The notes below the pieces were generated by a model. It ran no database searches, had not been told where the DNA came from, and worked only from the letters and a program-made list of their open reading frames with translations. A DNA stretch of 64,000 nucleotides. Origin: Candidatus Moranbacteria bacterium UBA1362. Lineage in GTDB: Bacteria > Patescibacteriota > Minisyncoccia > Moranbacterales > GWC2-37-73. The stretch is from assembly GCA_002306085.1 (NCBI GenBank), contig DBRS01000014.1:10690-74689 (forward strand), in the 5' to 3' direction. The translations under genes were made by a program, and so were the position numbers. The stretch's first letter is position 1, and every line of letters starts with the position of its first letter. This document shows, piece after piece, positions 6,288 through 62,128 of this stretch.

Positions 6288-6323
6288 CCAGCTAAAAATT
6301 CAAAATTTTGAATTTTTAGCTGG
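6288..6323. repeat. Perfect 36-bp palindrome between smpB and tmRNA
   Basis: ccagctaaaaattcaaaa|ttttgaatttttagctgg is exactly self-complementary. Its last two bases overlap the GGGG start of tmRNA. It probably acts as the smpB terminator or as a processing or promoter element. Confidence 0.7.
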
Positions 6324-6728
6324 GGTTGTTTAGTTTCGACAGGTTGTACTTTTCAAAATATGCAAGCCGACCATTGCCGTAATGTCGCCAAACTTTCGGC
6401 AAAGATATAAGTGCAAACTTCATATCAAAAGCAAAAGCGGTTTTCGCAAGAGGATTTGCTTTTGCTCCAGCTTTAGCTTAATTTAACAGCTTTAGCCATC
6501 GGACTGCCGATTTCTCATAAGCAATCTCCGGTGTCAATCATGAGGATAGTTTGATGCGGTTTTCCGGCTGCATCAAGTGAAATTCTTCCGGAAACTGCGC
6601 ATGTCGGGTTTTGTTTATTTCATACCGCATGCGCCGATCTCCGATTTTTTCGGAGGGAAATAAAACAAGCTTGTAGAATATTTTGGATTGTCAATTTTGG
6701 ACATGGGTGCGATTCCCATCAACTCCAC
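6322..6728 (+). ncRNA. ssrA: Transfer-messenger RNA (tmRNA, ssrA)
   Basis: The 5' end GGGGTTGTTTAGTTTCGACAGG matches the tmRNA 5' consensus (GGGGnuG...UUCGAC.GG). The 3' end GGACATGGGTGCGATTCCCATCAACTCCAC matches the tRNA-like T-arm and acceptor. The acceptor stem GGGGUUG/CAACUCC contains the G3:U70 alanine identity pair. An internal tag reading frame (...GCA AAA GCG GTT TTC GCA AGA GGA TTT GCT TTT GCT CCA GCT TTA GCT TAA) ends with ...PALA-stop about 110 nt from the 5' end. CCA is not encoded. It sits directly downstream of smpB. Confidence 0.85.
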
Positions 6729-6883
6729 TGAAAAAATTTTAAATACTAAAGCAACCTGACTACATTCCTTAGGAAAACTAGTCATGGTTCACTAAAGCCA
6801 TAAGAAAGAGATTTCGTTTCAAACCAAAACAACCAACCGGTCCGGCGCCACTAAGAACAAATGAAGCGATCCGGACTCCCTAT

Positions 6884-13422: not shown

Positions 13423-13579
13423 AAATATATTGTTACATTGTTATATTGTTAAATTGTTTTTTGGCTCAATCAAGAGCAATTTAGCCATCAAACAATTTAG
13501 CAATTTACTGGACTTGACTTTTATATCAATTTGGAGTATAATTAAAGGTTGGGAGCACATTACAAACTTGGAGGTTTAT

Positions 13580-13780
13580 ATGCTGATATTTTACTTGGTA
13601 ACCGCATCGTTATCGATCGGCGCAATTTGCGGCATAGTTTCATATTATGCCTGCGTTTCACTAATCAACTACGCGCCCAATTTTCCTTTGGTGGAAATCA
13701 TACACCCCATCGGAGCCCCTTATTTTATGTTTAATGCTGGTTCGGTTATCGCAGCAGTGCTGATGATCTGTTCGGCATGA
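13580..13780 (+). CDS. Small hydrophobic protein (66 aa), antisense-oriented inside the atp operon gap
   Basis: ATG at 13580 is preceded by GGAGG with 7-nt spacing. It encodes MLIFYLVTASLSIGAICGIVSYYACVSLINYAPNFPLVEIIHPIGAPYFMFNAGSVIAAVLMICSA, which has two predicted TM helices. It is followed by a hairpin plus T-run. The longer in-frame ORF in the track (from 13415) lacks an RBS. Confidence 0.4.
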   Translation: MLIFYLVTASLSIGAICGIVSYYACVSLINYAPNFPLVEIIHPIGAPYFMFNAGSVIAAVLMICSA

Positions 13781-19997: not shown

Positions 19998-21326
19998 TCA
20001 ATCGAAAAGCTTCTTGTAGTTCTTGGACCAGTATACGATTCCGTTGTAATAGTTTTCATTGAAAGCTCCGAGGTAGTTGATGGAAGCTTTTTTTATGGCC
20101 GATTTGCTGTCCGAAGTCGCGCCAGCATCTCTTAATTTTATCGCCATCGCCGTAACGCCGTCCGTGAGATCCCATGGATCGGGAGTTTTGTGCCCTGTTT
20201 TTGCCGCTATCCGCGAAGAATAGCCTTTCCACACATCAGACATGAACTGCGCAACTCCCATTGCTCCTCCCTGCCCGATATAGCTGCTTGGAGAACATGA
20301 AACTTTTTTGTTCTTGCTATAACCCAAATCGTCAACCAAATCATAGAAAATATCCATTCTCTTGTAGAGAAGCTTAATTGATTTTTTATATTTTGATCCG
20401 TATTTTTTGTATCTTGCCACTGCCACTTTTTCAACTTCTTTATACGTACATTGTCCCGTATTGGCTCCCAGGTTCGTTTCCATCTTCAGAAACCCGTAAA
20501 GAACACCCTTCGGAACTCCGGTATTTTTGCTGGCGAATTCTACCGCTTCCTTTATATCCTTCGCGTTAAAAGATTTTCCGGTCAATATGCTCAGGTCAGC
20601 CTGTAATTCCGCGAGTTTCTCCTGCAATTCACTGACTGTCGCTTCTTGTTCTTCAACTTCCTCCTGCACGTTTACCTGCTGGACAACTAAATCTTTCTTC
20701 TGCCCAACCTTCTCGTCAAGTATTTCTTCATGTTGTTTTTTCGTTTCGGCTAGCTCGATCTTGTCGCGCTCCACCTGATTTTTTGTCTCGGCAATATCTT
20801 GCGAAATATTCATTATCTTATCCTCAAGCGTCATGAGATTATCAGCATTGGAAAAAACATCCCTAAAATTTTCCCCCGCCAAAACTATACTAATAACCGG
20901 CTGGCTCTTGATGTAATATATCTGCTGGAGAAAACTCTTCAGCATCGCTTTCTTAAGCTCTATTTGCTCGTTCAAGTTTTTAATTTCCTCCTCTTTGCGT
21001 GAAATAGTTTCTTCAGCGTCCTTTATCGCGGCCTGCGTCTTGTTTATAGCGGACTGCGTCGAAGAAACCGCGCTCTGAAGTTGTCCCAAAACACTCTGTT
21101 TTTCCTGCAGTTCCTTTTGCTCTTTTTCAAGTTTCTTCTCAAGATCCTTGATGCTGTCTTCCGTATCTTCTATTTCTTCCTTCTTTTCTTTTTCTTCATC
21201 TCCCGCTGAATCTCCATCAGCAGCAAAAGCGCCGGCGTTCCAAAAGGAAATCTGAGACAAAGCGAAAACAGGCAGGACAAGCGCCCACACAACAGCAAAC
21301 ATGATGTTTTTCTGCGCGTTATTCAT
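19998..21326 (-). CDS. Secreted coiled-coil protein with C-terminal lytic transglycosylase-like (MltB/SLT_2-type) domain
   Basis: 442 aa. It has an N-terminal signal or TM segment, about 200 aa of E/K-rich coiled coil, then a C-terminal domain with GAMGVAQFMSDVWKGY, resembling the GAMG.QFMP motif of MltB-type transglycosylases. Confidence 0.5.
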   Translation of the reverse strand: MNNAQKNIMFAVVWALVLPVFALSQISFWNAGAFAADGDSAGDEEKEKKEEIEDTEDSIKDLEKKLEKEQKELQEKQSVLGQLQSAVSSTQSAINKTQAAIKDAEETISRKEEEIKNLNEQIELKKAMLKSFLQQIYYIKSQPVISIVLAGENFRDVFSNADNLMTLEDKIMNISQDIAETKNQVERDKIELAETKKQHEEILDEKVGQKKDLVVQQVNVQEEVEEQEATVSELQEKLAELQADLSILTGKSFNAKDIKEAVEFASKNTGVPKGVLYGFLKMETNLGANTGQCTYKEVEKVAVARYKKYGSKYKKSIKLLYKRMDIFYDLVDDLGYSKNKKVSCSPSSYIGQGGAMGVAQFMSDVWKGYSSRIAAKTGHKTPDPWDLTDGVTAMAIKLRDAGATSDSKSAIKKASINYLGAFNENYYNGIVYWSKNYKKLFD

Positions 21327-51642: not shown

Positions 51643-52251
51643 CTACTTGCGCTTGGAGTTGCCATTGCCATGTTTTTTGTCATTGTCTTGCACCCCTTTA
51701 TCTTTCTGATACTTGCCGTCATGCTTTTTGTCATACCTGTCATTGCCACACTTCTTTTTTGAGCAATGGTGACGTTTGTCTTTCTTGTCCTTGTCCCCGT
51801 CTTTCTTGTCCTTATCATTATCGTCATCGTCATCATCATCGTCGTCATGTTCGTTATTGTTTCCGCCCACGCAGGCATTCTCGTTCCAGCTCCAGCGCGC
51901 ATGATCACCGCATCTCGGAATCCAGTTCCAGCCGGCATCCACTTCCCTTATTTTCGCGAGCAATTCTTCCTTGCTGTCGATGTCATAACTATCCTGCTCG
52001 CGTTTCCTGTCTTTGCGGTCATCGCCGTTGCCTCCTTTGCAACGATCCTCATCCGTATCCCATACCGCATTATCTCCGCAGTTCGGGACCCAATCCCAAC
52101 CGGCATCAGCTTCTTCCACGACCTCCAGAAGCTCCTGTTCGCTTGTTATCATGCTTCTTGCATCAGCTTGGGACGCCACACAGCCGATTCCAAAGACCGA
52201 AAGTGCAGCCAATAGGAGAAACTGCAATCCGCCTGTTTTTAGTCTTTCCAT
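51643..52251 (-). CDS. Secreted low-complexity Asp/Lys-rich protein with duplicated Cys-Trp motif
   Basis: 202 aa with a signal peptide. It has two copies of a ~25-aa motif (DAGWDWVPNCGDNAVWDTDEDRCKGGNG and DAGWNWIPRCGDHARWSWNENACVGGNN). The C-terminus is a poly-D (DDDDDDDDD) and DK/KD-rich tail. Confidence 0.4.
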   Translation of the reverse strand: MERLKTGGLQFLLLAALSVFGIGCVASQADARSMITSEQELLEVVEEADAGWDWVPNCGDNAVWDTDEDRCKGGNGDDRKDRKREQDSYDIDSKEELLAKIREVDAGWNWIPRCGDHARWSWNENACVGGNNNEHDDDDDDDDDNDKDKKDGDKDKKDKRHHCSKKKCGNDRYDKKHDGKYQKDKGVQDNDKKHGNGNSKRK

Positions 52252-53846: not shown

Positions 53847-53937
53847 TATTCGTCGAAAAGACCTTGCGCAACTTTCGCTGAAAAAGAAAAAAGCCTTGCG
53901 ATATCATATGTCGCAAGGCCGTGTTCATCGGCTCGTT

Positions 53938-54141
53938 TCATTTTCCGAGCCGCGCTTGATATTTTGCCGGTTCATTTTCAGGCCAGACTTCCCAAGTCTC
54001 GGGAACTTCGTCTCCGATGTGAAGCTTGAAAAACTCATCCGGAGGCTCGATGAATATCATCCTTCCGTCGCTCCTGCGCTTTGCCAATCCTCCGGCTGAT
54101 GTGCGATAAGTGATATCCTCGCGCGCTTCCTTCCCTTCCAT
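53938..54141 (-). CDS. Small hypothetical protein (67 aa)
   Basis: AGGAGG lies 8 nt upstream of the ATG. A hairpin plus T-run terminator lies downstream at ~53895-53930. Confidence 0.4.
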   Translation of the reverse strand: MEGKEAREDITYRTSAGGLAKRRSDGRMIFIEPPDEFFKLHIGDEVPETWEVWPENEPAKYQARLGK

Positions 54142-54378
54142 ATACCCTCCTCCTTATCTTGCATTTTTGTTAAAGATGCTTCCTGTAACTGAAACATCAG
54201 ATTACCATAAAAATTGTTTTTAGTAAAGCATGACAGTCCAAGCCGATCCAAACACAAAGGCTTTGAAATATTTTCAAAATTCCGCATCCGTCGAAAATGA
54301 AAATACGCCTATTTATTAATGTATTAAAAAAGAGCTAATTGCTTGATCTACAGTTATATTTTATCTCAACCTTCAGCC

Positions 54379-54407
54379 TTGCCAACTGCAGAATCTTTTG
54401 ATATAAT
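54379..54407 (+). promoter_or_regulatory. Near-consensus sigma70-type promoter (TTGCCA, 17 bp, TG-n-TATAAT) upstream of tRNA-Asn
   Basis: -35 ttgcca at 54379-54384, a 17-bp spacer and an extended -10 tgatataat at 54399-54407. A hairpin gttgct-gaaaa-agcaac plus T-run lies immediately downstream at ~54413-54436. Confidence 0.45.
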
Positions 54408-54540
54408 GCCTACGTTGCTGAAAAAGCAACATTTTTAAAAATCGAATATTCTGGCGTATCTGCCTGCCGCAGCCAAGACACAACTAAAGAGAAAAATATC
54501 TAAAAAGCTAATGCGGCAAATAACTTTCAAAAAACATTAT

Positions 54541-54612
54541 TCCGGCGTAGCGCAACGGTAGCGCAGGGGACTGTTAATCCCTTGGTTGTAGGTTCGAATC
54601 CTACCGCCGGAG
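54541..54612 (+). tRNA. tRNA-Asn (anticodon GTT)
   Basis: Manual fold. The acceptor is tccggcg/cgccgga, the D-arm gcgc-aacggta-gcgc, the anticodon arm gggga-cTGTTaa-tccct and the T-arm gtagg-ttcgaat-cctac. The discriminator is G and CCA is not encoded. Confidence 0.85.
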
Positions 54613-54750
54613 CACTGAAGTGTACTGTGCGTTCTCGAGTATGTAGTTAAAGGGAGAACGTAGCTCAAATAAAAGCTTTTTATCTTGAAGACGGCAGTTC
54701 TGAAGTAGAAAACTTAAGAGTTGCCGTTTTTCGTTTGCTTCAGAGGCGGA

Positions 54751-55489
54751 AAAGGGGTCAGGTACCTTTTTTCGGCCTTCCTCTTGGAATTAATGTAGAA
54801 ATCAGATTTAGTTTCTCGGCTATGTTTTTTATCCAATTTTCATTCCCATAAGGACGACCTCTTTTAATGGAATAATGTATTTTTTCCAATTTGTCTTCTT
54901 CGTTTTTATCAAGAGTATTAACCCATTCAAGATAACCGTCGGGCATTTCAACCGGCCATTTTGCAAGAAGCTTCTTTTGTTCCTCGTTTCCGTTTTCCCT
55001 GATCCAAAGACTGGACCATTTCCAATCTTGAGCCTTTTCAGTCAATCCGGCCCTCAAAGAATTTCTTTCCACATAACGGCAAACTTGCAAAAAATGATTA
55101 TCTTTTTCAACAAGAAAGGATTTGAATCTTCCCTGATAAACATGCCCGCAACCAATAGTTTTGTAATGGGCATGGTAACGTTGAGTGTGGGTATGAGTTA
55201 TCCATCTCATGAAATTTGACAAATCTTCTCCGTTTTTTGGATATAGCACAAAATGCCAATGGTTTGGCATTATGCAATATGAAAGAATTCGCATCGGATA
55301 CTTTTCCTTCGCTTCAAAAAGTATTTTTTCAAACGCTTCGTAATCTTTTTGTTTTTGAAATATTTTTTCTCTGCCATTGGCACGATTCAAGACATGGTAA
55401 ACCATATCGCCAACAGCTGAGCGTGGTATTCTTGCCATGCTCCAATCATATCACAATATTTATTGATAAAAAAGGTACCTGACCCCTTT
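54751..55489. mobile_element. IS200/IS605-family or RAYT-like element bounded by perfect 22-bp inverted repeats
   Basis: The left IR aaaggggtcaggtacctttttt (54751-54772) and right IR aaaaaaggtacctgaccccttt (55468-55489) are exact reverse complements. Each contains the GGTACC palindrome. They flank a single HuH Y1 transposase gene 140 bp from tRNA-Asn. Confidence 0.65.
54758..55438 (-). CDS. IS200-like / REP-associated tyrosine (Y1, HuH) transposase
   Basis: 226 aa. YHVLNRANGREKIF...ILSYCIMPNHWHFVLYP (the HuH motif is HWH) ...YQGRFKSF (catalytic Tyr region). The stop codon lies inside the left IR. Confidence 0.8.
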   Translation of the reverse strand: MARIPRSAVGDMVYHVLNRANGREKIFQKQKDYEAFEKILFEAKEKYPMRILSYCIMPNHWHFVLYPKNGEDLSNFMRWITHTHTQRYHAHYKTIGCGHVYQGRFKSFLVEKDNHFLQVCRYVERNSLRAGLTEKAQDWKWSSLWIRENGNEEQKKLLAKWPVEMPDGYLEWVNTLDKNEEDKLEKIHYSIKRGRPYGNENWIKNIAEKLNLISTLIPRGRPKKGT

Positions 55490-55553
55490 TTCTTTCTCAA
55501 TGTTGAATTGCTTCAAGGCGATGTTCTGCGGATCGGCTCCCGGTATTGTACAA

Positions 55554-56522
55554 CTAGCCAAAAATAACATTAAACAGATATCCCATGACGATTATCCCGA
55601 TAGTGGTTATTCCGAAAAAAATTGCCAGAAGCTGCCATCGCATCACCTTTTTGAGGATCAGTGCTTCAGGCAGTGACAGAGTAACGATTGCAGTCATGAA
55701 AGCTAAGACTGTGCCAAGCGGTGCGCCTTTGCCAACCATTGCATCCATTATTGGAAGAACGCTGACCGAATTGGCATAGAGCGGAACTCCTGACAAAACA
55801 GCCATTGGAACAGTCCACCAAGATTTTGCTGATAAATAATGTTCAACGAAGTTAGCAGGGATAAGACCGTGAATCAAAGCTCCGATTCCGACACCCAAAA
55901 GGACATAGGGAAAAATTTGTTTGGTAATTTTAAATCCATCTGTCCAAAAATATACCATCTGTTGACGAAAAGAAAGTTTATTGCCTCCATTTTCCAGTTC
56001 AACTTGCTTGCGCGATTTGAATTGCATGAGTTCGGGAAGGACATATTTTTCAACTTTTAATTTTTGAATCAACATTCCGCTAATTATTGCAATCGCCAGT
56101 CCGAATAAGTTATATAAAAAGGTTACTTTAATCCCGAAGAGTGCGGGGAAAAGATAGAGCGATGATTCGTTGATCAAAGGAGAGCTTATCAAAAATGCAA
56201 AGGTGATTCCCAAAGGAATGCCCGCACCCATAAAACCGATAAAAAGCGGGATTGATGAGCAGGAACAGAAAGGGGTAACAATCCCCAAAAGGGCGGCAAA
56301 AAGATAATTTAGCCCATACCAACGCTTTTTGGTCAGAATATCCCGTGCTCTTTCCATTGGAAAATAATAACGAGTAATCGCCATTATATAATTGACAACA
56401 ATCAAAAGCAGCCCGATCTTAACCGTGTCGTAAATAAAAAAGTTTATTCCGTCTGAAATTCCGGTATGCTCGGCTAGTTTGAAAACATCATAGGTCAGCC
56501 AATCGGCGAATGTTTTTATCAT
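55554..56522 (-). CDS. DUF318/ArsP-like permease
   Basis: 322 aa polytopic protein with the hallmark TPFCSCSSIP motif of the ArsP/DUF318 permease family. Confidence 0.7.
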   Translation of the reverse strand: MIKTFADWLTYDVFKLAEHTGISDGINFFIYDTVKIGLLLIVVNYIMAITRYYFPMERARDILTKKRWYGLNYLFAALLGIVTPFCSCSSIPLFIGFMGAGIPLGITFAFLISSPLINESSLYLFPALFGIKVTFLYNLFGLAIAIISGMLIQKLKVEKYVLPELMQFKSRKQVELENGGNKLSFRQQMVYFWTDGFKITKQIFPYVLLGVGIGALIHGLIPANFVEHYLSAKSWWTVPMAVLSGVPLYANSVSVLPIMDAMVGKGAPLGTVLAFMTAIVTLSLPEALILKKVMRWQLLAIFFGITTIGIIVMGYLFNVIFG

Positions 56523-56528
56523 ATATTG

Positions 56529-57245
56529 TTATAAATTGATTAAATATCTAATAAGGTATTGTAGATAGTAAATTCCAGCTAAAAGAAAAATTGTGGCAAC
56601 GCTATATCGCATTATTTTTTCAATGTTTTCCATTATATTGTAGATTTTTCCCAATTTTCCGATACTAAAAGCCAAAATAAAAGAAAAAGCAATAACGGGC
56701 AGCCCAGTTCCTAATGCAAACAAAGGAGGCAAAAGTAAACCGCCAGTTGATTTAATAACAAGTGGAATAAGTATTCCGAAAAATAATACTCCACTATAAG
56801 GGCAAAAGGCTAAAGCGAAAACAATACCCAATAGCAGTGTTCCAATATGTCCTTTTGTTGCCAGCCATTGTTTAATTTTTTCAATCTTCTCGTTTCTTGA
56901 GCCAATGTTTATTTTAATAATCCCAAACATTACTAATGCAATCAAGACAAGTAGTATTCCCAATACTTTATCGCCCCATCCCTGAAAAATTTTTGCCACC
57001 TGAAAGGAGGAAAGCCCGAAAAAAATAAGACCTGCCAAGAGCATATAGCTTATGCCCCTTCCCAAAGTATAAATAAAACCGCTGACTAGAGTATGCTTGG
57101 CGGTTTTTATTTCTCTGGAAATAAAAGCGATGGCAGTAATATTAGTTGCCAAAGGGCATGGACTGATGGAAGTCATCACTCCCAAGACAAAAGCAGATAG
57201 CAAGGGGATATTATATTGGTCTATTAAGATATTAAAAAATTCCAT
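56529..57245 (-). CDS. CcdA/DsbD-like transmembrane thiol-disulfide transporter
   Basis: 238 aa with 6 TM helices. The first helix carries SISPCPLAT, the Cys-Pro motif of the DsbD_2/CcdA family. Confidence 0.65.
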   Translation of the reverse strand: MEFFNILIDQYNIPLLSAFVLGVMTSISPCPLATNITAIAFISREIKTAKHTLVSGFIYTLGRGISYMLLAGLIFFGLSSFQVAKIFQGWGDKVLGILLVLIALVMFGIIKINIGSRNEKIEKIKQWLATKGHIGTLLLGIVFALAFCPYSGVLFFGILIPLVIKSTGGLLLPPLFALGTGLPVIAFSFILAFSIGKLGKIYNIMENIEKIMRYSVATIFLLAGIYYLQYLIRYLINL

Positions 57246-57256
57246 ATTTATTCGAA

Positions 57257-57823
57257 TTATTCAATGCAACAATCAATCGCTTTTCTTACGAGATCTCTTA
57301 GTTTTCCGGTAAAACCTGTTGGATTATTGTCGAGCTTGTTAAGCGCATTTTCGTCAATTTTTTTGATTGTTTTTTCAGATTCAACTCCACCGGCTTCTTT
57401 GATGTCATTTGTCCCGATAAGCTTCATATTTAAAGCCCAGAACATTCCATAAAGGTCATAAGATTTTTGGAACAGTTCCTTGGCTTCTTCTTTCTTGCCC
57501 ATTCCCAATTGTTTTGTTCCAACTTCCATAAGCCGCATCGATGCAGCCAGAAGGTGCTTGGAAATGCACCAAACTTCGCCTTCATATTCTTTAATAATTT
57601 TCTGAAGCAAAGACTTGCGCATTTCCCTTACTTCTTTGAGCAAATCAAAATATTCGTCTTTGCCTGTTTTTTCAGCTGTGAAGAAAAAATGTTCCTCAAT
57701 GCTAATAAGATTCATGATGGCAATACTAAGATCTTGATCGGATGATAGATCCATCTTATCCTGTTTCTTCATCTGATCAATTTTTTTCACGAATTCGCTT
57801 AAATTTTTGATTTTGTTTTGCAT
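57257..57823 (-). CDS. Hypothetical helical protein
   Basis: 188 aa. No motif was found. Confidence 0.3.
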   Translation of the reverse strand: MQNKIKNLSEFVKKIDQMKKQDKMDLSSDQDLSIAIMNLISIEEHFFFTAEKTGKDEYFDLLKEVREMRKSLLQKIIKEYEGEVWCISKHLLAASMRLMEVGTKQLGMGKKEEAKELFQKSYDLYGMFWALNMKLIGTNDIKEAGGVESEKTIKKIDENALNKLDNNPTGFTGKLRDLVRKAIDCCIE

Positions 57824-57827
57824 AATT

Positions 57828-58343
57828 TTATTTAGTTAGAAAATAATAAACGACGCTTAAAATGATTAAAGGTGCAATTGGCATTACCACTTTCTGAAAA
57901 GGAAAGTAGGCGTGTCCGTTATTTTTATCTTTGAGATGAAAATACCAGCTGGCGCCAAACCAAAAAGAAATGCTTCCGGCAATTATGCCGAAAAGCAGTT
58001 TGTCTAGACCGCAGTTACAAAAAGTATTTAAGGGATTGCCAATTATCTTGGAATAATGCAGCGGAATTAAGATTAAGGCATAATATCCTGCAATGTTAGC
58101 GTAAATTCTGCCTTTGAATTTGATATTTTTCTTATCCAGCCAGCTTTCCGTCCAAGCAATCATAGAAACGATCAGCCCTCCGATCCAAAGTCCGGTAATT
58201 GAATCATCTATTCCCAGCCAGCGTGAAAGTCCGACACCGGCGCTGACAGCAATTGTGCAAATTGGACAAACCGCCCATGCTTTTTTGGCAAAAATAACCC
58301 CGACTGTAAAAAACGCTAAAAATAACGCTGATTTTTTATTCAT
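57828..58343 (-). CDS. Membrane protein with CPxC and CxC motifs (possible thiol-disulfide oxidoreductase)
   Basis: 171 aa and ~4 TM helices. AVCPICT lies in TM1 and FCNCG in a later loop. Confidence 0.35.
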   Translation of the reverse strand: MNKKSALFLAFFTVGVIFAKKAWAVCPICTIAVSAGVGLSRWLGIDDSITGLWIGGLIVSMIAWTESWLDKKNIKFKGRIYANIAGYYALILIPLHYSKIIGNPLNTFCNCGLDKLLFGIIAGSISFWFGASWYFHLKDKNNGHAYFPFQKVVMPIAPLIILSVVYYFLTK

Positions 58344-58754
58344 TTATTTTTCGTAAATTTTTTGTTTGAAAAAAGCAATGATATCTTTGTCGCCACTCAG
58401 GCATTTTTCTCCGTCCCAAAGAAAGGGAATACCTATTGAATCTTTCGGTATTCCACAGGCTCTGGCTTTTTCTTCCAATTGTTTGAAATTGGCTCGGTCG
58501 CGATAGATCTCCTTTTGAGAAAATTTTATTTTTTCATCTACTTTATTTTTTTTGATGTAGTCTTCCACGATCAAACAATGCGGGCAGCCGTCCCCATAGA
58601 AAAAAATTATATTCTCTTCCGATTCCACTTTCTCCTGAACCGGCATCTCGCTTGCCGGCAATTGCTCTGAGCTTTTATCTTTGAAAAAAGCATAAAATGA
58701 AAATATCAGAGTGAAAATGAATAAGACTGTAGGTATAATGATTTTATTTTTCAT
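58344..58754 (-). CDS. Membrane-anchored glutaredoxin-like protein (CPHC)
   Basis: 136 aa. FFYGDGCPHCLIVEDYI. It is a paralog of 50643..51032. Confidence 0.65.
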   Translation of the reverse strand: MKNKIIIPTVLFIFTLIFSFYAFFKDKSSEQLPASEMPVQEKVESEENIIFFYGDGCPHCLIVEDYIKKNKVDEKIKFSQKEIYRDRANFKQLEEKARACGIPKDSIGIPFLWDGEKCLSGDKDIIAFFKQKIYEK

Positions 58755-58760
58755 GGTTTT

Positions 58761-59243
58761 TTATAATAAACTTTTTATTTCCGAAACAAGATAATCAGAA
58801 AAAGCCTTTTTGTCGGATATTAGTCTCCAAACCCGGGTGTCTTCTTTGATGTTGTCCTTGCCGTCGATAATCGGATTGATAAAAAGCGATGATCCAGCCG
58901 CCTTAAACTTAGCCGCAATTTCCTTATTTTCCGGCAAATCCACGTTAATTTCTTTGAATTCAATTTTTCCTTCATGCAACTCTAATTGAAAGAATTCCTC
59001 AAGCGTTGCTTTCGTGTATTGACCTATTGTTATGCAGGAATGGCAGCGGTTAGTGGAATGAAACATGTAAACCTGGATTTTTTCCGCCGGTTTTGTTTTT
59101 TGAACTTCAGTCTCCTGAGAATTTTTTTGCGTGTTGATGCTGTCGGACTGAGAATTTTTGTTCGAATTTGCGCTTATATAGATAAGTGCTATGGCAAAAA
59201 ACAAAGCGCTTCCATAAAGCAAATATATCCCTAACTTTTTCAT
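58761..59243 (-). CDS. Secreted/anchored CxxC protein (CHSC), possible thioredoxin-like fold
   Basis: 160 aa with an N-terminal TM. VYMFHSTNRCHSCITIGQY. Confidence 0.35.
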   Translation of the reverse strand: MKKLGIYLLYGSALFFAIALIYISANSNKNSQSDSINTQKNSQETEVQKTKPAEKIQVYMFHSTNRCHSCITIGQYTKATLEEFFQLELHEGKIEFKEINVDLPENKEIAAKFKAAGSSLFINPIIDGKDNIKEDTRVWRLISDKKAFSDYLVSEIKSLL

Positions 59244-59264
59244 AATATGCTCCTATCTTAATTA

Positions 59265-59552
59265 TTAGCACTTGCAATTGCAAGAACAAGCCCCGGCCTG
59301 ATTGTTTGCTGACATTTTGTAATTTGCCAATATTTCTTTGATTTGATCAACATCAGGCACTGATCCGGCTATGACTACTTTCTCATCCACAATCAAAACT
59401 GGCATGCTCATTACGTTATATTCCATTATTTTTTGAATGTCGGTTATTTTTTCTACCGTCGTTTCCATTTTTAATTCTTCCAGAGCTTTTTTTGTGTTGG
59501 ATTCAAGTTTTTGGCAATTAGGACAGTCAGAGCCTAAGATTTTAATGTTCAT
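59265..59552 (-). CDS. Thioredoxin-family small redox-active disulfide protein (CPNC active site) with Cys-rich tail
   Basis: 95 aa. MNIKILGSDCPNCQKLE resembles the 'redox-active disulfide protein 2' family that is commonly paired with ArsR and DUF318 permeases. The C-terminus is CSCNCKC. Confidence 0.65.
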   Translation of the reverse strand: MNIKILGSDCPNCQKLESNTKKALEELKMETTVEKITDIQKIMEYNVMSMPVLIVDEKVVIAGSVPDVDQIKEILANYKMSANNQAGACSCNCKC

Positions 59553-59557
59553 AACGT

Positions 59558-59866
59558 TTATTTGATTACTTGATTAAAAATTTTCTTATAATCCTTGATA
59601 GCTTTTTTATTAAGGGAATAGCGGATAAAATTTCCTTCCCTTGTTTCATTCAAAAGCCCTATTTTTTTCAGTTGCTTTAGATGGTGGGAAGCCAATTTGT
59701 CTGAGATGCCGATGGCGGGAATTATTTCGCATACGCATTTTGAGCCTCTCTGAAGAACGCAGAGAATTTTCAGTCTGTTTGGATCGGCGATGGCGCGAAG
59801 AAATGAATATGTTTTGGCAACATCATCCGCCTCTTTTGAATTTTTTCCGCAACAATTGAATGACAT
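59558..59866 (-). CDS. ArsR/SmtB family metalloregulatory transcriptional repressor
   Basis: 102 aa. The wHTH region has the metal-sensing CVCE motif (LKILCVLQRGSKCVCEIIPAIGISDKLASHHLKQLKKIGLL). Confidence 0.85.
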   Translation of the reverse strand: MSFNCCGKNSKEADDVAKTYSFLRAIADPNRLKILCVLQRGSKCVCEIIPAIGISDKLASHHLKQLKKIGLLNETREGNFIRYSLNKKAIKDYKKIFNQVIK

Positions 59867-60033
59867 AAAAAAACTATTCTAGTTTATATTAGAATAGTAT
59901 AATCTTTTTTTAATTTTGTCAAAAGTTCCGGGCCTGTTGTAACAAAAACAAGGCCTTAACGATCTTGTTTATAAAATACTTCCTATGATAGATATGTTTC
60001 GCAACTTTAATATTAGTCATAGCAAGGAATTGA

Positions 60034-60378
60034 TTAAAATGGTTTAGTGATATTTACGTCATCCACTCTGACTTTGTGAGAAATAATCAAAGACTTCAAA
60101 TGTTCCCTGAATTCTTGCATTGGCACAAGCCCGCTTCGTGCGTTTGTCAAAGCTTGAAATCCATCCGCTTTAGTTAAATTCAATCCGAGAGCCACCACTC
60201 CCATATTGAAACCAAGCTGGATCTTCCGCTCTTCGGATAAATCATCCCACTTGTCTACTTGTGTAAATCGTAGCACTTGTTCACAGGCGTGAATAACAAA
60301 ATCATTCATATTATTTCTTATATCTATAATTATATCATAAAAAGCTTTGGAGTTATATTGGTATAAAAAATAACCCAA
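60034..60378 (-). CDS. Hypothetical protein
   Basis: 114 aa with no motif. It lies immediately 3' of the intron-containing tRNA gene. Confidence 0.3.
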   Translation of the reverse strand: MGYFLYQYNSKAFYDIIIDIRNNMNDFVIHACEQVLRFTQVDKWDDLSEERKIQLGFNMGVVALGLNLTKADGFQALTNARSGLVPMQEFREHLKSLIISHKVRVDDVNITKPF

Positions 60379-60440
60379 TAAAAATGGGTTATTTTATCTA
60401 GCTCCGCGAGTAGGACTCGAACCTACAACCAATTGATTAC

Positions 60441-60986
60441 ACATTATCTCTTTGTTTCCAAAAAGGGTGGACTATATCATCTCCTTTACAGGAGTGAGGC
60501 GCTTCCCGGAATTTAAAATTCCAGTACTCTCTTGCAAGATAGTCTCTGAACCTTTCCCGGATGATGGGACTTGGCTGCTGATTACCATAATTTCTGCTGA
60601 GAAATGTTAGGCTTCCAGCAATTCACCTCATTCTTCACTTCCAAATTTCTTTGGAAGGCTGCGAATGTTATTATGCAACTCTCTGTGGCAATTTGCGCAT
60701 ACAAGAATGCATTTTTCAACTTCACCTTTCACTCTCTCCCAGCTGCGGGTCAAACCCGATTGGGAAACGCCAAATTCTTTTTTGAAGAATCGGCATGATG
60801 AAATTCCAATGCATCACTGCAACGATCATAGCCACAAAGCGCACACCTACCGCCTCCATATTGAATTGCCATTTCTCTAAGTTTCTTGCGTCTTTTTGAA
60901 ACAGCCTTGATCATATACTCTCGGCGGTCAGCATATTTTCGGGTATCCTTCATATATTTTAATTATAACATGAAGGAACGTGTACC
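60441..60986 (-). ncRNA. Group I self-splicing intron (inserted in tRNA anticodon loop)
   Basis: The minus strand contains the canonical group I core elements R (GTTCAGAGACTA, plus-strand coords 60541-60552) and S (GATATAGTCC, 60470-60479). The intron ends in G before the 3' exon. The 5' exon ends in U, consistent with a P1 U.G pair. Confidence 0.7.
60583..60953 (-). pseudogene. Decayed HNH homing-endonuclease gene inside the intron
   Basis: The 67-aa ORF 60750..60953 encodes ...GGGRCALCGYDRCSDALEFHHADSSKKN (a CxxC knuckle plus the HH of HNH). The same frame, interrupted by two TGA stops, continues as ...KNAFLYAQIATES..., where the second knuckle (N..LC..CH) has mutated to Y/I/A. Confidence 0.5.
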
Positions 60987-61744
60987 ACAGTCAACTGCTC
61001 TACCATTGAGCTATCGCGGAATATTTAATTTTAAAAATGTTGCCCAATAAAGCAACAAAAGCATTATAACAAAAGATTGCCTGCTTGGCAAGGCTTAAAA
61101 ATGGGCCGGATCTTGAATAACGCATCTGTCTTATCACTTGTTTTTGCGGCGTTTTTCGCGGTTGTCGCCATCGGCATGATTTTGATCGGCTTTGCTTTCA
61201 ATATGTTTTTCTGACAAAAGTAACGGCTTTTCCCGATATTTCGATTTTTTCACGAGAAGCATGTTATTCATCAATTAACATATTCTGTTTTTGTGATAGA
61301 ATATGAACATAACATTAATACAAAAAAATGAACCACAAAAGGCTTGAAGTTTTTCTGGAGTTCCTGTGTTTTGGAGTGATCATGGGCGTTATTGAAGACA
61401 TGATCGCAGTCAGAATCACATCAGGAACACCTATAACATGGAAGGTTTTCGGAGTCATCGTTTTAATAGCGATTCCTTTTGCCTTCATCGGAGAAATGAT
61501 CGTCGACAAGATCAACTTTGTGAAGCTTTTCAGAAGATTCTTTTCAAAAAAACGAAGGGCATAGAAAAAACAGCAAAACAAAATCGAAGCGCCGCAAGGC
61601 GTTTTTTTGTTTGCCGACATCCCTTCCCTGTTCATGCGGAGGATCCAATGATGAGCAATGTTCATCCCGATCACTGGCGACAGAAGACGAAAAAATTCTG
61701 TTTGTACTAAATGTAGGCATGATAATTAATTAATCTTCAAAAAA

Positions 61745-62128
61745 ATGGACAAAAAATACATCGACGGTTTTGTTCTTGCGGTTCCGAAAGAAAAACTTGA
61801 CTCTTATCGCGAGATGGCCCAAAAGATGGCAAAACTTATGAAAAAATACGGCGCCCTGAAATATATCGAGGCTGTCGGAGAAGACATGAATCCGAAAATG
61901 ATGGAAGGCATGGAAATTGCGAAATTCCCGCAGATGGTCCAGGCCAGGCCCGACGAAGTTGTGATGTTTTCCTTCATCGTTTTCGAATCCCGCGCGCATC
62001 GCGATGAAGTAAACGCCAGGGTCATGAAGGATCCCTTTTTGAATGATTATGAGATGAAGGAAAAAATGATGCCTTTTGACATGAAACGCATGGCCTACGG
62101 CGGATTTGAAGTCATCGTGGAAAGCTGA
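61745..62128 (+). CDS. DUF1428 family protein
   Basis: 127 aa. YIDGFVLAVPKEKLDSYREMAQKMAKLMKKYGALKYIE...FIVFESRAHRDEVNARVMKDP...MPFDMKRMAYGGFEVIV matches the DUF1428 consensus. Confidence 0.7.
   Translation: MDKKYIDGFVLAVPKEKLDSYREMAQKMAKLMKKYGALKYIEAVGEDMNPKMMEGMEIAKFPQMVQARPDEVVMFSFIVFESRAHRDEVNARVMKDPFLNDYEMKEKMMPFDMKRMAYGGFEVIVES

Follow-up and report, generated by a model that had tools for sequence, protein, structure and literature searches.

Two paralogous tRNA-Asn genes, one interrupted by a group I intron, at a strain-variable locus of an anaerobic-digester Candidatus Moranbacteria

We analyzed a 64,000-nucleotide (nt) stretch of contig DBRS01000014.1 from Candidatus Moranbacteria bacterium UBA1362. 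This whole stretch is hereafter called the window, and coordinates are positions in the window unless another locus is named. The window holds two genes for tRNA-Asn with anticodon GUU that face each other: an intron-free copy (tRNA1, 54541-54613, + strand) and a copy interrupted by a group I intron (tRNA2, 61020-60401, - strand). They are spaced 5787 nt apart, and the DNA between them contains a transposase gene and ars-type genes, all on the minus strand. We consider it likely that this is a hypervariable locus, a hot spot for recombination and integration, in which two paralogous tRNA-Asn genes reside together, alternative cassettes replace one another, and an island has its insertion site at tRNA1. 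On this reading, the two paralogues would be transcribed independently of each other, and the intervening DNA would belong to one of at least two alternative cassettes at 54745-61324 rather than to an element integrated into a tRNA gene.

We called tRNA genes with ARAGORN (default settings, then the intron option) and Rfam, and assigned protein families using the Pfam and NCBIfam cut-offs. Approximately 65 related contigs were read, of which 23 are displayed as population loci; we typed strains by BLAST of these 23 loci against the window and by reading the junctions by eye. The host is a Candidatus Moranbacteria from digesters. Proteins identical to those of the window occur on dozens of anaerobic-digester metagenome contigs and in the metagenome-assembled genome (MAG) GCA_035411305.1, and one identical protein carries the NCBI name "Candidatus Moranbacteria bacterium." In a scan of a genome collection, the best RpoD matches (75 to 77% identical) came from Candidatus Moraniibacteriota MAGs, which lie within the Patescibacteria, or candidate phyla radiation (CPR). 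A scan of the same kind for synteny, with the DUF1428 protein of the locus as the query, found no relative. The locus lies in a chromosome stretch downstream of dnaG-rpoD, with rpoD just outside the window, and is oriented here by an aldo-keto reductase (AKR) gene on one side and a GH18 gene on the other. Because independent assemblies from Logan, ENA, JGI, and NCBI reproduce the two-tRNA arrangement at 99.9 to 100% identity, the arrangement is real and an assembly artifact is excluded.

ARAGORN and Rfam (72.7 bits) agree on the position of tRNA1, in line with a preliminary description of this DNA that had placed an intact tRNA-Asn(GUU) at 54541. Its promoter (54379-54407, +) reads TTGCCA-17-TGnTATAAT, with an extended -10 element and 11 of 12 consensus matches, and lies in a block (54368-54451, +) that aligns with the block preceding tRNA2. 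Between this block and the gene, we read a 9-nt relic of a tRNA 5' end (TCTGGCGTA, from 54452, +) and then an 80-nt leader (54461-54540, +). The trailer downstream of tRNA1 (54614-54744, +) is kept in all cassette types when strains are compared, and it includes a terminator-like hairpin followed by a T run at about 54691-54727 (+).

The second gene, tRNA2, consists of a 5' exon (61020-60987, -), a 547-nt group I intron (60986-60440, -), and a 3' exon (60439-60401, -). The preliminary description had correctly reported an intron-bearing copy but had it end at 60403 instead of 60401. The intron core at 60448-60687 (-) matches Rfam RF00028 over model positions 1-253 with 85.1 bits, compared to a gathering threshold of 50. 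The junction reads CUGU|g...gug|UAA, which places the insertion between nucleotides 35 and 36 of the anticodon, with U at position -1 and a terminal G. When the exons are joined, ARAGORN calls a canonical 73-nt tRNA-Asn(GTT). With default settings, ARAGORN called no gene at 60401-61020, and its intron option miscalled tRNA2 as a tRNA-Thr(UGU) with an intron at position 33; annotators should be aware that default tRNA finders miss this gene or call it tRNA-Thr. The tRNA2 promoter (61063-61091, -) has the same form as that of tRNA1, TTGCCA-17-TGnTATAAT, and sits in the block homologous to that of tRNA1, while directly 3' of the gene we read a terminator-like hairpin and T run, AATAACCCAtttttaTTGGGTTATTTTTT (60364-60400, -). 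A candidate YrlA RNA at 60346-60451 was rejected, since its Rfam score was 26.8 bits against a threshold of 69 and the match reflects the tRNA T arm.

Group I introns at position 35/36 of patescibacterial tRNA-Asn genes have been described by Nakagawa et al. (mSystems 2026, PMC13011429), who reported that introns at this site self-splice in vitro and that four of the tRNA-Asn introns carry HNH genes. The tRNA2 intron shares with that class the phylum, the tRNA, the insertion site, the U at -1 and terminal G, and the RF00028 match; it also exceeds 500 nt, contains an HNH-type open reading frame (ORF), and provokes the identical ARAGORN miscall to tRNA-Thr(UGU) that the paper describes. It differs from that class in three respects. 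The endonuclease gene of the window intron has a fixed frameshift, an intron-free tRNA-Asn(GUU) lies 5.8 kb away in the same genome, and the strains of one population differ in which tRNA-Asn copy they have retained. The same paper states that intron-bearing and intron-less genes for one anticodon rarely share a genome and takes this rarity as an argument that introns of this kind are not easily lost.

Homologous introns at the same tRNA-Asn site were found in other CPR genomes (L096/L097, L106/L107, and L108), with uninterrupted HNH genes of 108 amino acids (aa). The ribozyme core is conserved across the four homologous introns, and both partners have changed in 8 of 49 predicted pairs, although this is a small sample. 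The window core scores as well as that of L096, a relative with an intact endonuclease gene (85.1 bits versus 82.5 bits), and hence we find no decay of the ribozyme. The preliminary description had proposed that the intron-bearing gene might be free to decay. We find instead that its exons are canonical, that its ribozyme core appears intact, and that tRNA2 is kept in strains without tRNA1 here; from these sequences, only the endonuclease gene has decayed. By analogy with the other 35/36 introns, for which splicing has been shown in vitro (PMC13011429), the tRNA2 intron is predicted to self-splice.

Within the intron, the putative HNH homing-endonuclease gene (60628-60953, -), recognized by reading its ORF and by its homologues, is frameshifted. 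Frame 0 runs from 60953 to 60750, for 67 codons, and then meets a stop; a -1 shift at A_AAA_AAG (60783-60777) restores a conserved C-terminal half, ...EFGVSQSGLTRSWERVKGEVEKCILVCANCHRELH..., that ends at 60628. The corrected protein of 108 aa has more than 1000 homologues, and most of the best 120 listed are approximately 100 to 110 aa long, uninterrupted, and at most 90% identical to it. It shows a CxxC...HH...CANCH pattern, and some homologues carry PF01844, while the corrected protein itself had no match in a Pfam search at E <= 0.01. The frameshift is identical in 15 of 15 population loci examined. Given that relatives are in frame (the version in L096 reads GGAAAAAG), a 1-nt deletion in the A run is the simpler reading. 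Homing endonucleases generally decay after fixation. The site (60777-60783, -) is also a classic -1 slippery heptamer in the zero frame, and a -1 slip there would yield exactly the conserved full-length protein, so low-level frameshifting of the HNH gene may occur.

The two tRNA genes are closely related, as had been stated earlier. Both are full-length and convergent, and 63 of 73 positions match (86% identity). The differences affect each side of the acceptor, D, and anticodon stems with pairing kept, and there is one more in the T loop. In the anticodon stem, two positions differ on each side of the intron insertion site (GGGGA/UCCCU in tRNA1 versus GUUGA/UCAAU in tRNA2). When the two 84-nt upstream blocks are aligned, 64 of the 89 columns are identical, and neither block is as similar to its counterpart in L106, L096, or L108 as it is to the other. 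Together, the genes form inverted repeats, with 85% identity over 39 nt between the tRNA 3' halves and 77% over 48 nt between the promoters. On the strength of these alignments, we regard tRNA1 and tRNA2 as old paralogues, neither duplicates of an attachment (att) site nor a gene and its retro-copy.

We considered whether the T arm common to both genes is a sign of recent gene conversion and rejected this, because a scan of metagenomes with the T-arm motif matched diverse tRNAs from many lineages, some with introns and some without. Exons resembling tRNA1 and exons resembling tRNA2 both occur without introns in other metagenomic lineages. In three more distantly related Patescibacteria, a tRNA-Asn gene lies within 1.5 kb downstream of rpoD on the rpoD strand (L018 4134-4207, L021 12286-12358, and L047 2231-2305), and in L022 one lies on that strand 9.8 kb downstream of rpoD (20862-20934). 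These genes match tRNA2 of the window in position and orientation. In the closest genome by the RpoD scan (L016), tRNA-Asn was not found within 9.5 kb downstream of rpoD. The comparison gives only a hint that tRNA2 may occupy the older position.

The strains of the digester population differ at this locus. The replaceable unit in the window, cassette W (54745-61324), comprises a RAYT-like unit, an ars-type operon, and tRNA2 with its promoter. Its first border follows the tRNA1 terminator, 131 nt beyond tRNA1 itself, and its second lies 304 nt upstream of tRNA2; because tRNA2 lies inside the variable unit, it is cargo and not a border. The flank that holds tRNA1 is conserved. The window type, with both tRNA genes, was seen in L005, L006, L009, and L100 at 99.99 to 100% identity. 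In the N type (L010, L013, and L101), 54745-61324 is swapped for a 7.0-kb cassette N that encodes NYN, zinc-ribbon, Trypsin_2, and DUF6804 proteins. L101, an unbroken contig from the aldo-keto reductase gene through the GH18 gene, has tRNA1 only and no group I intron. N and W types show no difference in the flank that ends at 54744; the only differences in the opposite flank are at 61332-61342 and a polymorphism at 62049, which is also present in several W-type loci. Strains carrying alternative cassettes are otherwise 99.8 to 100% identical, which bears out the earlier view that the intervening DNA is accessory. The comparison of synteny that had been suggested as a check likewise found the DNA variable among strains, but the variable borders are 54745 and 61324, not the tRNA genes. 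The suggested check of composition revealed a discontinuity: cassette W has a GC content of 37.2%, compared to 41.0% for the window and within the lowest 0.4% of equal-sized segments, and its tetranucleotide distance of 0.197 is the largest observed (mean 0.124, standard deviation 0.020). Cassette N has a GC content of 32%. Cassettes W and N both behave as flexible DNA.

Two further genotypes were detected. In the tRNA1-deletion type (L003, L012, and L102), cassette W is kept and tRNA1 is missing, since 53906-54743, with a 67-aa ORF, tRNA1, its promoter, and its terminator, is exchanged for a 2.7-kb stretch. This replacement consists of approximately 2.5 kb of unrelated DNA, encoding HTH, DUF2178, and MazE-like proteins, and a second, diverged version of the 67-aa ORF; the 63 differences from the window are all confined to the approximately 210 nt that this version spans. 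In the other genotype (L001, L002, L008, L011, and L014), the final 450 bp of cassette N stand in place of most of the transposase gene, its body. The joins (55389-55420 in the window, about 11110-11135 in L001 and L002) fall in a microhomology of approximately 20 nt, GGCGA(T)ATGGTTTAC(C/G)ATGT, at two different crossover points in L001 and L002. Because the transposase body is swapped for the end of cassette N at this microhomology, we read these loci as W/N recombinants, and they point to repeated illegitimate recombination between coexisting strains. A 244-aa gene of cassette N was tested as a diverged transposase and is not one. An IS1595-family transposase insertion at 61726-61732 is present in L008 and L099; in L008 (11345-12197), it lies between the DUF1428 gene and a 78-aa gene and has a 7-bp target duplication.

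Thus, genotypes with both tRNA genes, with tRNA1 only, and with tRNA2 only were all found at the locus, and because the two genes are redundant, either can be lost. As the default explanation, we infer that cassettes W and N are exchanged between coexisting strains by recombination in their identical flanks, alongside which occasional illegitimate joins would form at microhomology. The absence of the intron from tRNA1, and with it a possible stability of the mixed state, could be explained by the dead endonuclease or by the divergent anticodon stem of tRNA1, either of which would suffice to prevent homing.

A separate type of event would be the entry of a large-serine-recombinase island into the 3' end of tRNA1. 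The last 6 nt of tRNA1 are followed by foreign DNA in L004 and L010, at the junction CAGT-GCTCCG|AACGC. In L103, a 493-aa protein with Resolvase, Recombinase, and Zn_ribbon_recom domains abuts an intact tRNA1 and represents the other junction. The two junctions come from different contigs, none of which shows the island complete, and the window represents the empty site. The core common to both is GCTCCG, or CGGAGC on the tRNA1 strand, which corresponds to the last 6 nt of tRNA1 (54608-54613) and is the full extent of the repeat; the attP of the island would read CAATTTG-GCTCCG-AACGCTGAAC. In L108, a homologous recombinase (32% identity, E = 1e-82) is encoded directly at the 3' end of a tRNA-Asn gene that contains an intron. 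Judging from these junctions, the tRNA1 3' end is the attachment site of the island. The island resembles other tRNA-linked recombinase islands in lying beside a tRNA 3' end, regenerating the tRNA, and carrying defense cargo (type III Mod and Res restriction-modification genes and an AAA_15 ATPase), and its large serine recombinase is of the XisF/Ccr-like kind. The island is absent from the window, and the segment between the two tRNA genes has, unlike such islands, no recombinase, no att repeats, and borders that fall away from the tRNA genes.

Two observations concern the island itself. Between L004 (11916-18245) and L010 (18898-20804), a 1.7-kb AAA_15 stretch is preserved at 99.9% identity, yet its orientation is opposite and its spacing from the junction differs, and the first 340 nt of the island are only 91% identical between the two loci, which indicates that the island may have undergone internal rearrangement or may exist in two versions. 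In L108, a LOOT RNA (RF03000, 64.3 bits) occurs at 13504-13630, inside the serine-recombinase island beside the intron-bearing tRNA-Asn gene.

Several points weigh against the account of a hypervariable locus with two paralogues and alternative cassettes. No repeats or recombinase signature were detected at the swap borders 54744/54745 and 61324/61325. Three different sequences join at 54743-54745, beside the end of the RAYT-like unit, and the Y1 transposase of that unit could play a part in these junctions. Genes of 73 nt are too short to decide between duplication within the lineage and import from a close relative. A possible third tRNA-Asn gene elsewhere would weaken the inference that each copy suffices by itself. 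Finally, this account has no place for the replacement event hinted at by the 9-nt relic and the leader in front of tRNA1.

The relic is the starting point for an alternative, which we judge unlikely, in which tRNA1 was delivered horizontally or by recombination as a replacement, together with 80 nt of upstream DNA, and joined to the resident promoter at the 12-nt string TATTCYGGCGTA. This string occurs twice, at the end of the promoter block (54449) and at the start of tRNA1 (54537), and the two copies enclose 76 nt without similarity to anything else fetched; likewise, the 80-nt leader had no second copy in any locus compared. The relic TCTGGCGTA sits exactly where tRNA2 and its relatives start behind the promoter block and is followed by the leader and a complete gene. 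From its appearance, the repeat pair could have been left by a replacement or by a partial tandem duplication. A replacement would also agree with the microhomology joins that occur at this locus, with the lack of the tRNA1 unit in L003-type strains, and with the diverged allele of the neighboring ORF, which marks imported DNA. However, the relic matches tRNA1 (8 of 9 positions) rather than tRNA2; a partial tandem duplication with a later deletion would account for it just as well. The scans also revealed no donor: metagenomes yielded no match to the postulated ancestral junction, in which the promoter directly precedes tRNA1, and viral contigs yielded neither tRNA1 nor the tRNA2/intron junction. 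Of the earlier proposal that the intron-free copy was a delivered replacement, then, what survives is that the relic and leader could mark an old event of this kind.

The preliminary description had treated the two tRNA genes as a signature of tRNA-targeted integration; on that reading, the 5.8-kb segment would be an island in tRNA-Asn and the two copies would be duplicated att sites. The segment is accessory and AT-rich, and tRNA-Asn 3' ends do serve as attachment sites in this population and in L108, so integration at tRNA1 holds for the island of other strains. As an explanation of the two tRNA genes in the window, it is very improbable. The copies are complete, inverted, and 14% diverged, and each has its own promoter and terminator, which leads us to reject a scar of site-specific integration. 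Searches of the ORFs in 54614-60400 with Pfam and NCBIfam found no integrase or recombinase, only the Y1 transposase. The presence/absence borders are at 54745 and 61324 instead of at the tRNA ends, with tRNA2 inside the variable unit, and the far border has no direct repeat of the tRNA 3' part, only the complete and inverted tRNA2. The genuine island at tRNA1 leaves just a 6-nt core repeat.

An inversion or duplication of the segment, mediated by the inverted tRNA copies or by the RAYT-like transposase, is about as remote and perhaps slightly more so. The inverted repeats described above exist, and several variant breakpoints fall at the end of the RAYT-like unit at 54743-54745. However, these repeats have diverged and are of short length, the 64 kb contain just two copies of the REP-like arms, with none in the other fetched loci, and none of the 23 loci shown from the approximately 65 contigs read has the operon inverted relative to the AKR and GH18 flanks, a result that does not favor the earlier suggestion of inversion by the mobile element. 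The least credible of the alternatives, also raised earlier, is that tRNA1 is a retro-processed copy of spliced tRNA2; although tRNA1 lacks the intron and has the identical anticodon, the homology reaches approximately 80 nt upstream into promoter DNA, which is not transcribed and thus excludes a copy of spliced RNA, 10 of the 73 exon positions differ between the two genes, with changes that compensate one another, no reverse transcriptase was found near the locus among the ORFs screened, and PMC13011429 detected no group II introns in Patescibacteria.

We return to the account of two coexisting paralogues and exchangeable cassettes, which has consequences for the tRNA supply of the different strains. 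If one tRNA-Asn gene per CPR genome is the rule, as PMC13011429 implies, the tRNA1-deletion strains would depend on splicing of tRNA2, and the N-type strains would depend on tRNA1. Both genes are presumably functional. More tentatively, the population may be in a transitional state of tRNA intron gain or loss, in which the paralogue is a co-resident, the endonuclease has decayed or is throttled by its frameshift, and strains are sorted by recombination; we see this as possible but hold it with little confidence.

The components of the locus are all of known kinds, namely, a 35/36 intron with an HNH gene, a recombinase island, a RAYT-like gene, an ars-type operon, and strain-variable cassettes. 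What goes beyond the literature consulted is that one genome has an intron-bearing and an intron-free gene for the same anticodon and that near-clonal digester strains carry one form, the other, or both. With these strains, one can ask whether a tRNA intron harms its host, helps it, or is neutral, whether both forms can coexist only when the endonuclease is dead, and how a reduced genome replaces one of its tRNA genes. If each copy is indeed the sole tRNA-Asn gene in the strains that lack the other, the success of strains across digesters would provide a natural measure of the cost or benefit of the intron.

The gene content between the two tRNA genes had been listed correctly (IS200/RAYT-like element, ArsR, thioredoxin, glutaredoxin, CcdA, and DUF318 permease). 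The RAYT-like unit (54745-55490, -) consists of an ORF for a Y1_Tnp tyrosine transposase (54758-55438, -; PF01797, 66.5 bits compared to a cut-off of 23) and perfect inverted 23-nt arms at 54750-54772 and 55468-55490, found by repeat search and predicted by folding to form hairpins. The protein scored 73.1 bits with NCBIfam REP_Tyr_transpos (NF047646), narrowly under the cut-off of 80, and just 22 bits with the IS200 model. Like RAYTs and IS200-like Y1 transposases, the unit has a single Y1_Tnp ORF between inverted hairpin arms. Unlike RAYTs, it scores below the NCBIfam cut-off and varies in presence between strains. Beyond the two arms, we found no further REP-like copies in the 64-kb window or in the fetched loci.

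The remainder of the minus-strand run is an ArsR-led cluster (55554-59866, -), annotated with Pfam and NCBIfam. In the order of the minus strand, it encodes ArsR (59558-59866); an ArsE-family thioredoxin-like protein (Thioredoxin_3, 59265-59552), with 100.7 bits to the MTH895/ArsE family compared to a cut-off of 62; an ArsF-family protein (58761-59243), with 105.6 bits to NCBIfam ArsF compared to 60 and no Pfam match; a CPHC protein that is weakly glutaredoxin-like (58344-58754), a membrane CxxC protein (57828-58343), and a conserved 188-aa protein (57257-57823), each without a Pfam match; an ArsG-family/DsbD_2 (CcdA-like) protein (56529-57245), with 278 bits to ArsG compared to 200; and an ArsP_1 permease, formerly DUF318 (55554-56522), with 196.9 bits compared to 32.3. 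ArsEFG and ArsP function in organoarsenical resistance (Chen, Zhang & Rosen 2019; Chen et al. 2015, as cited in PMC9144182). As in those systems, the window has ArsR, ArsE/F/G-family proteins, and ArsP_1 in one operon-like run; it differs from them by three extra small proteins within the run. The term "thiol-redox island" in the preliminary description therefore named the right genes, and the run is better described as an ArsR-led cluster of the ArsE/F/G/P type. Its activity is predicted from annotation to be that of an ArsR-regulated metalloid/thiol-redox operon.

The 188-aa protein has at least 8000 homologues at 70 to 94% identity across Patescibacteria. In other CPR genomes, homologues adjoin cation-efflux genes, and in L110 and L111 (10001-10567) they lie between EF-G and EF-Tu genes. 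The protein is probably metal-related, and because its homologues adjoin cation-efflux genes, the substrate of the cluster may be a metal and not an arsenical. Elsewhere, an ars-like cluster lies beside tyrosine integrases in L109, and part of the cluster lies between the EF-G and EF-Tu genes in L110 and L111. In none of these three loci is there a tRNA-Asn gene beside it, and the cluster does not travel with tRNA-Asn.

Three other features of the window were recorded. A small ORF without a family match (60034-60378, -) could encode 114 aa from a TTG inside the tRNA2 terminator and is called as 91 aa in most related contigs. A 202-aa ORF (51643-52251, -), with no family match on record, has two internal repeats and a long Asp/Lys-rich low-complexity tail and is present in all related contigs. 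A tmRNA gene is located at 6322-6730 (Rfam, 121.6 bits), with the predicted tag peptide ANFISKAKAVFARGFAFAPALA.

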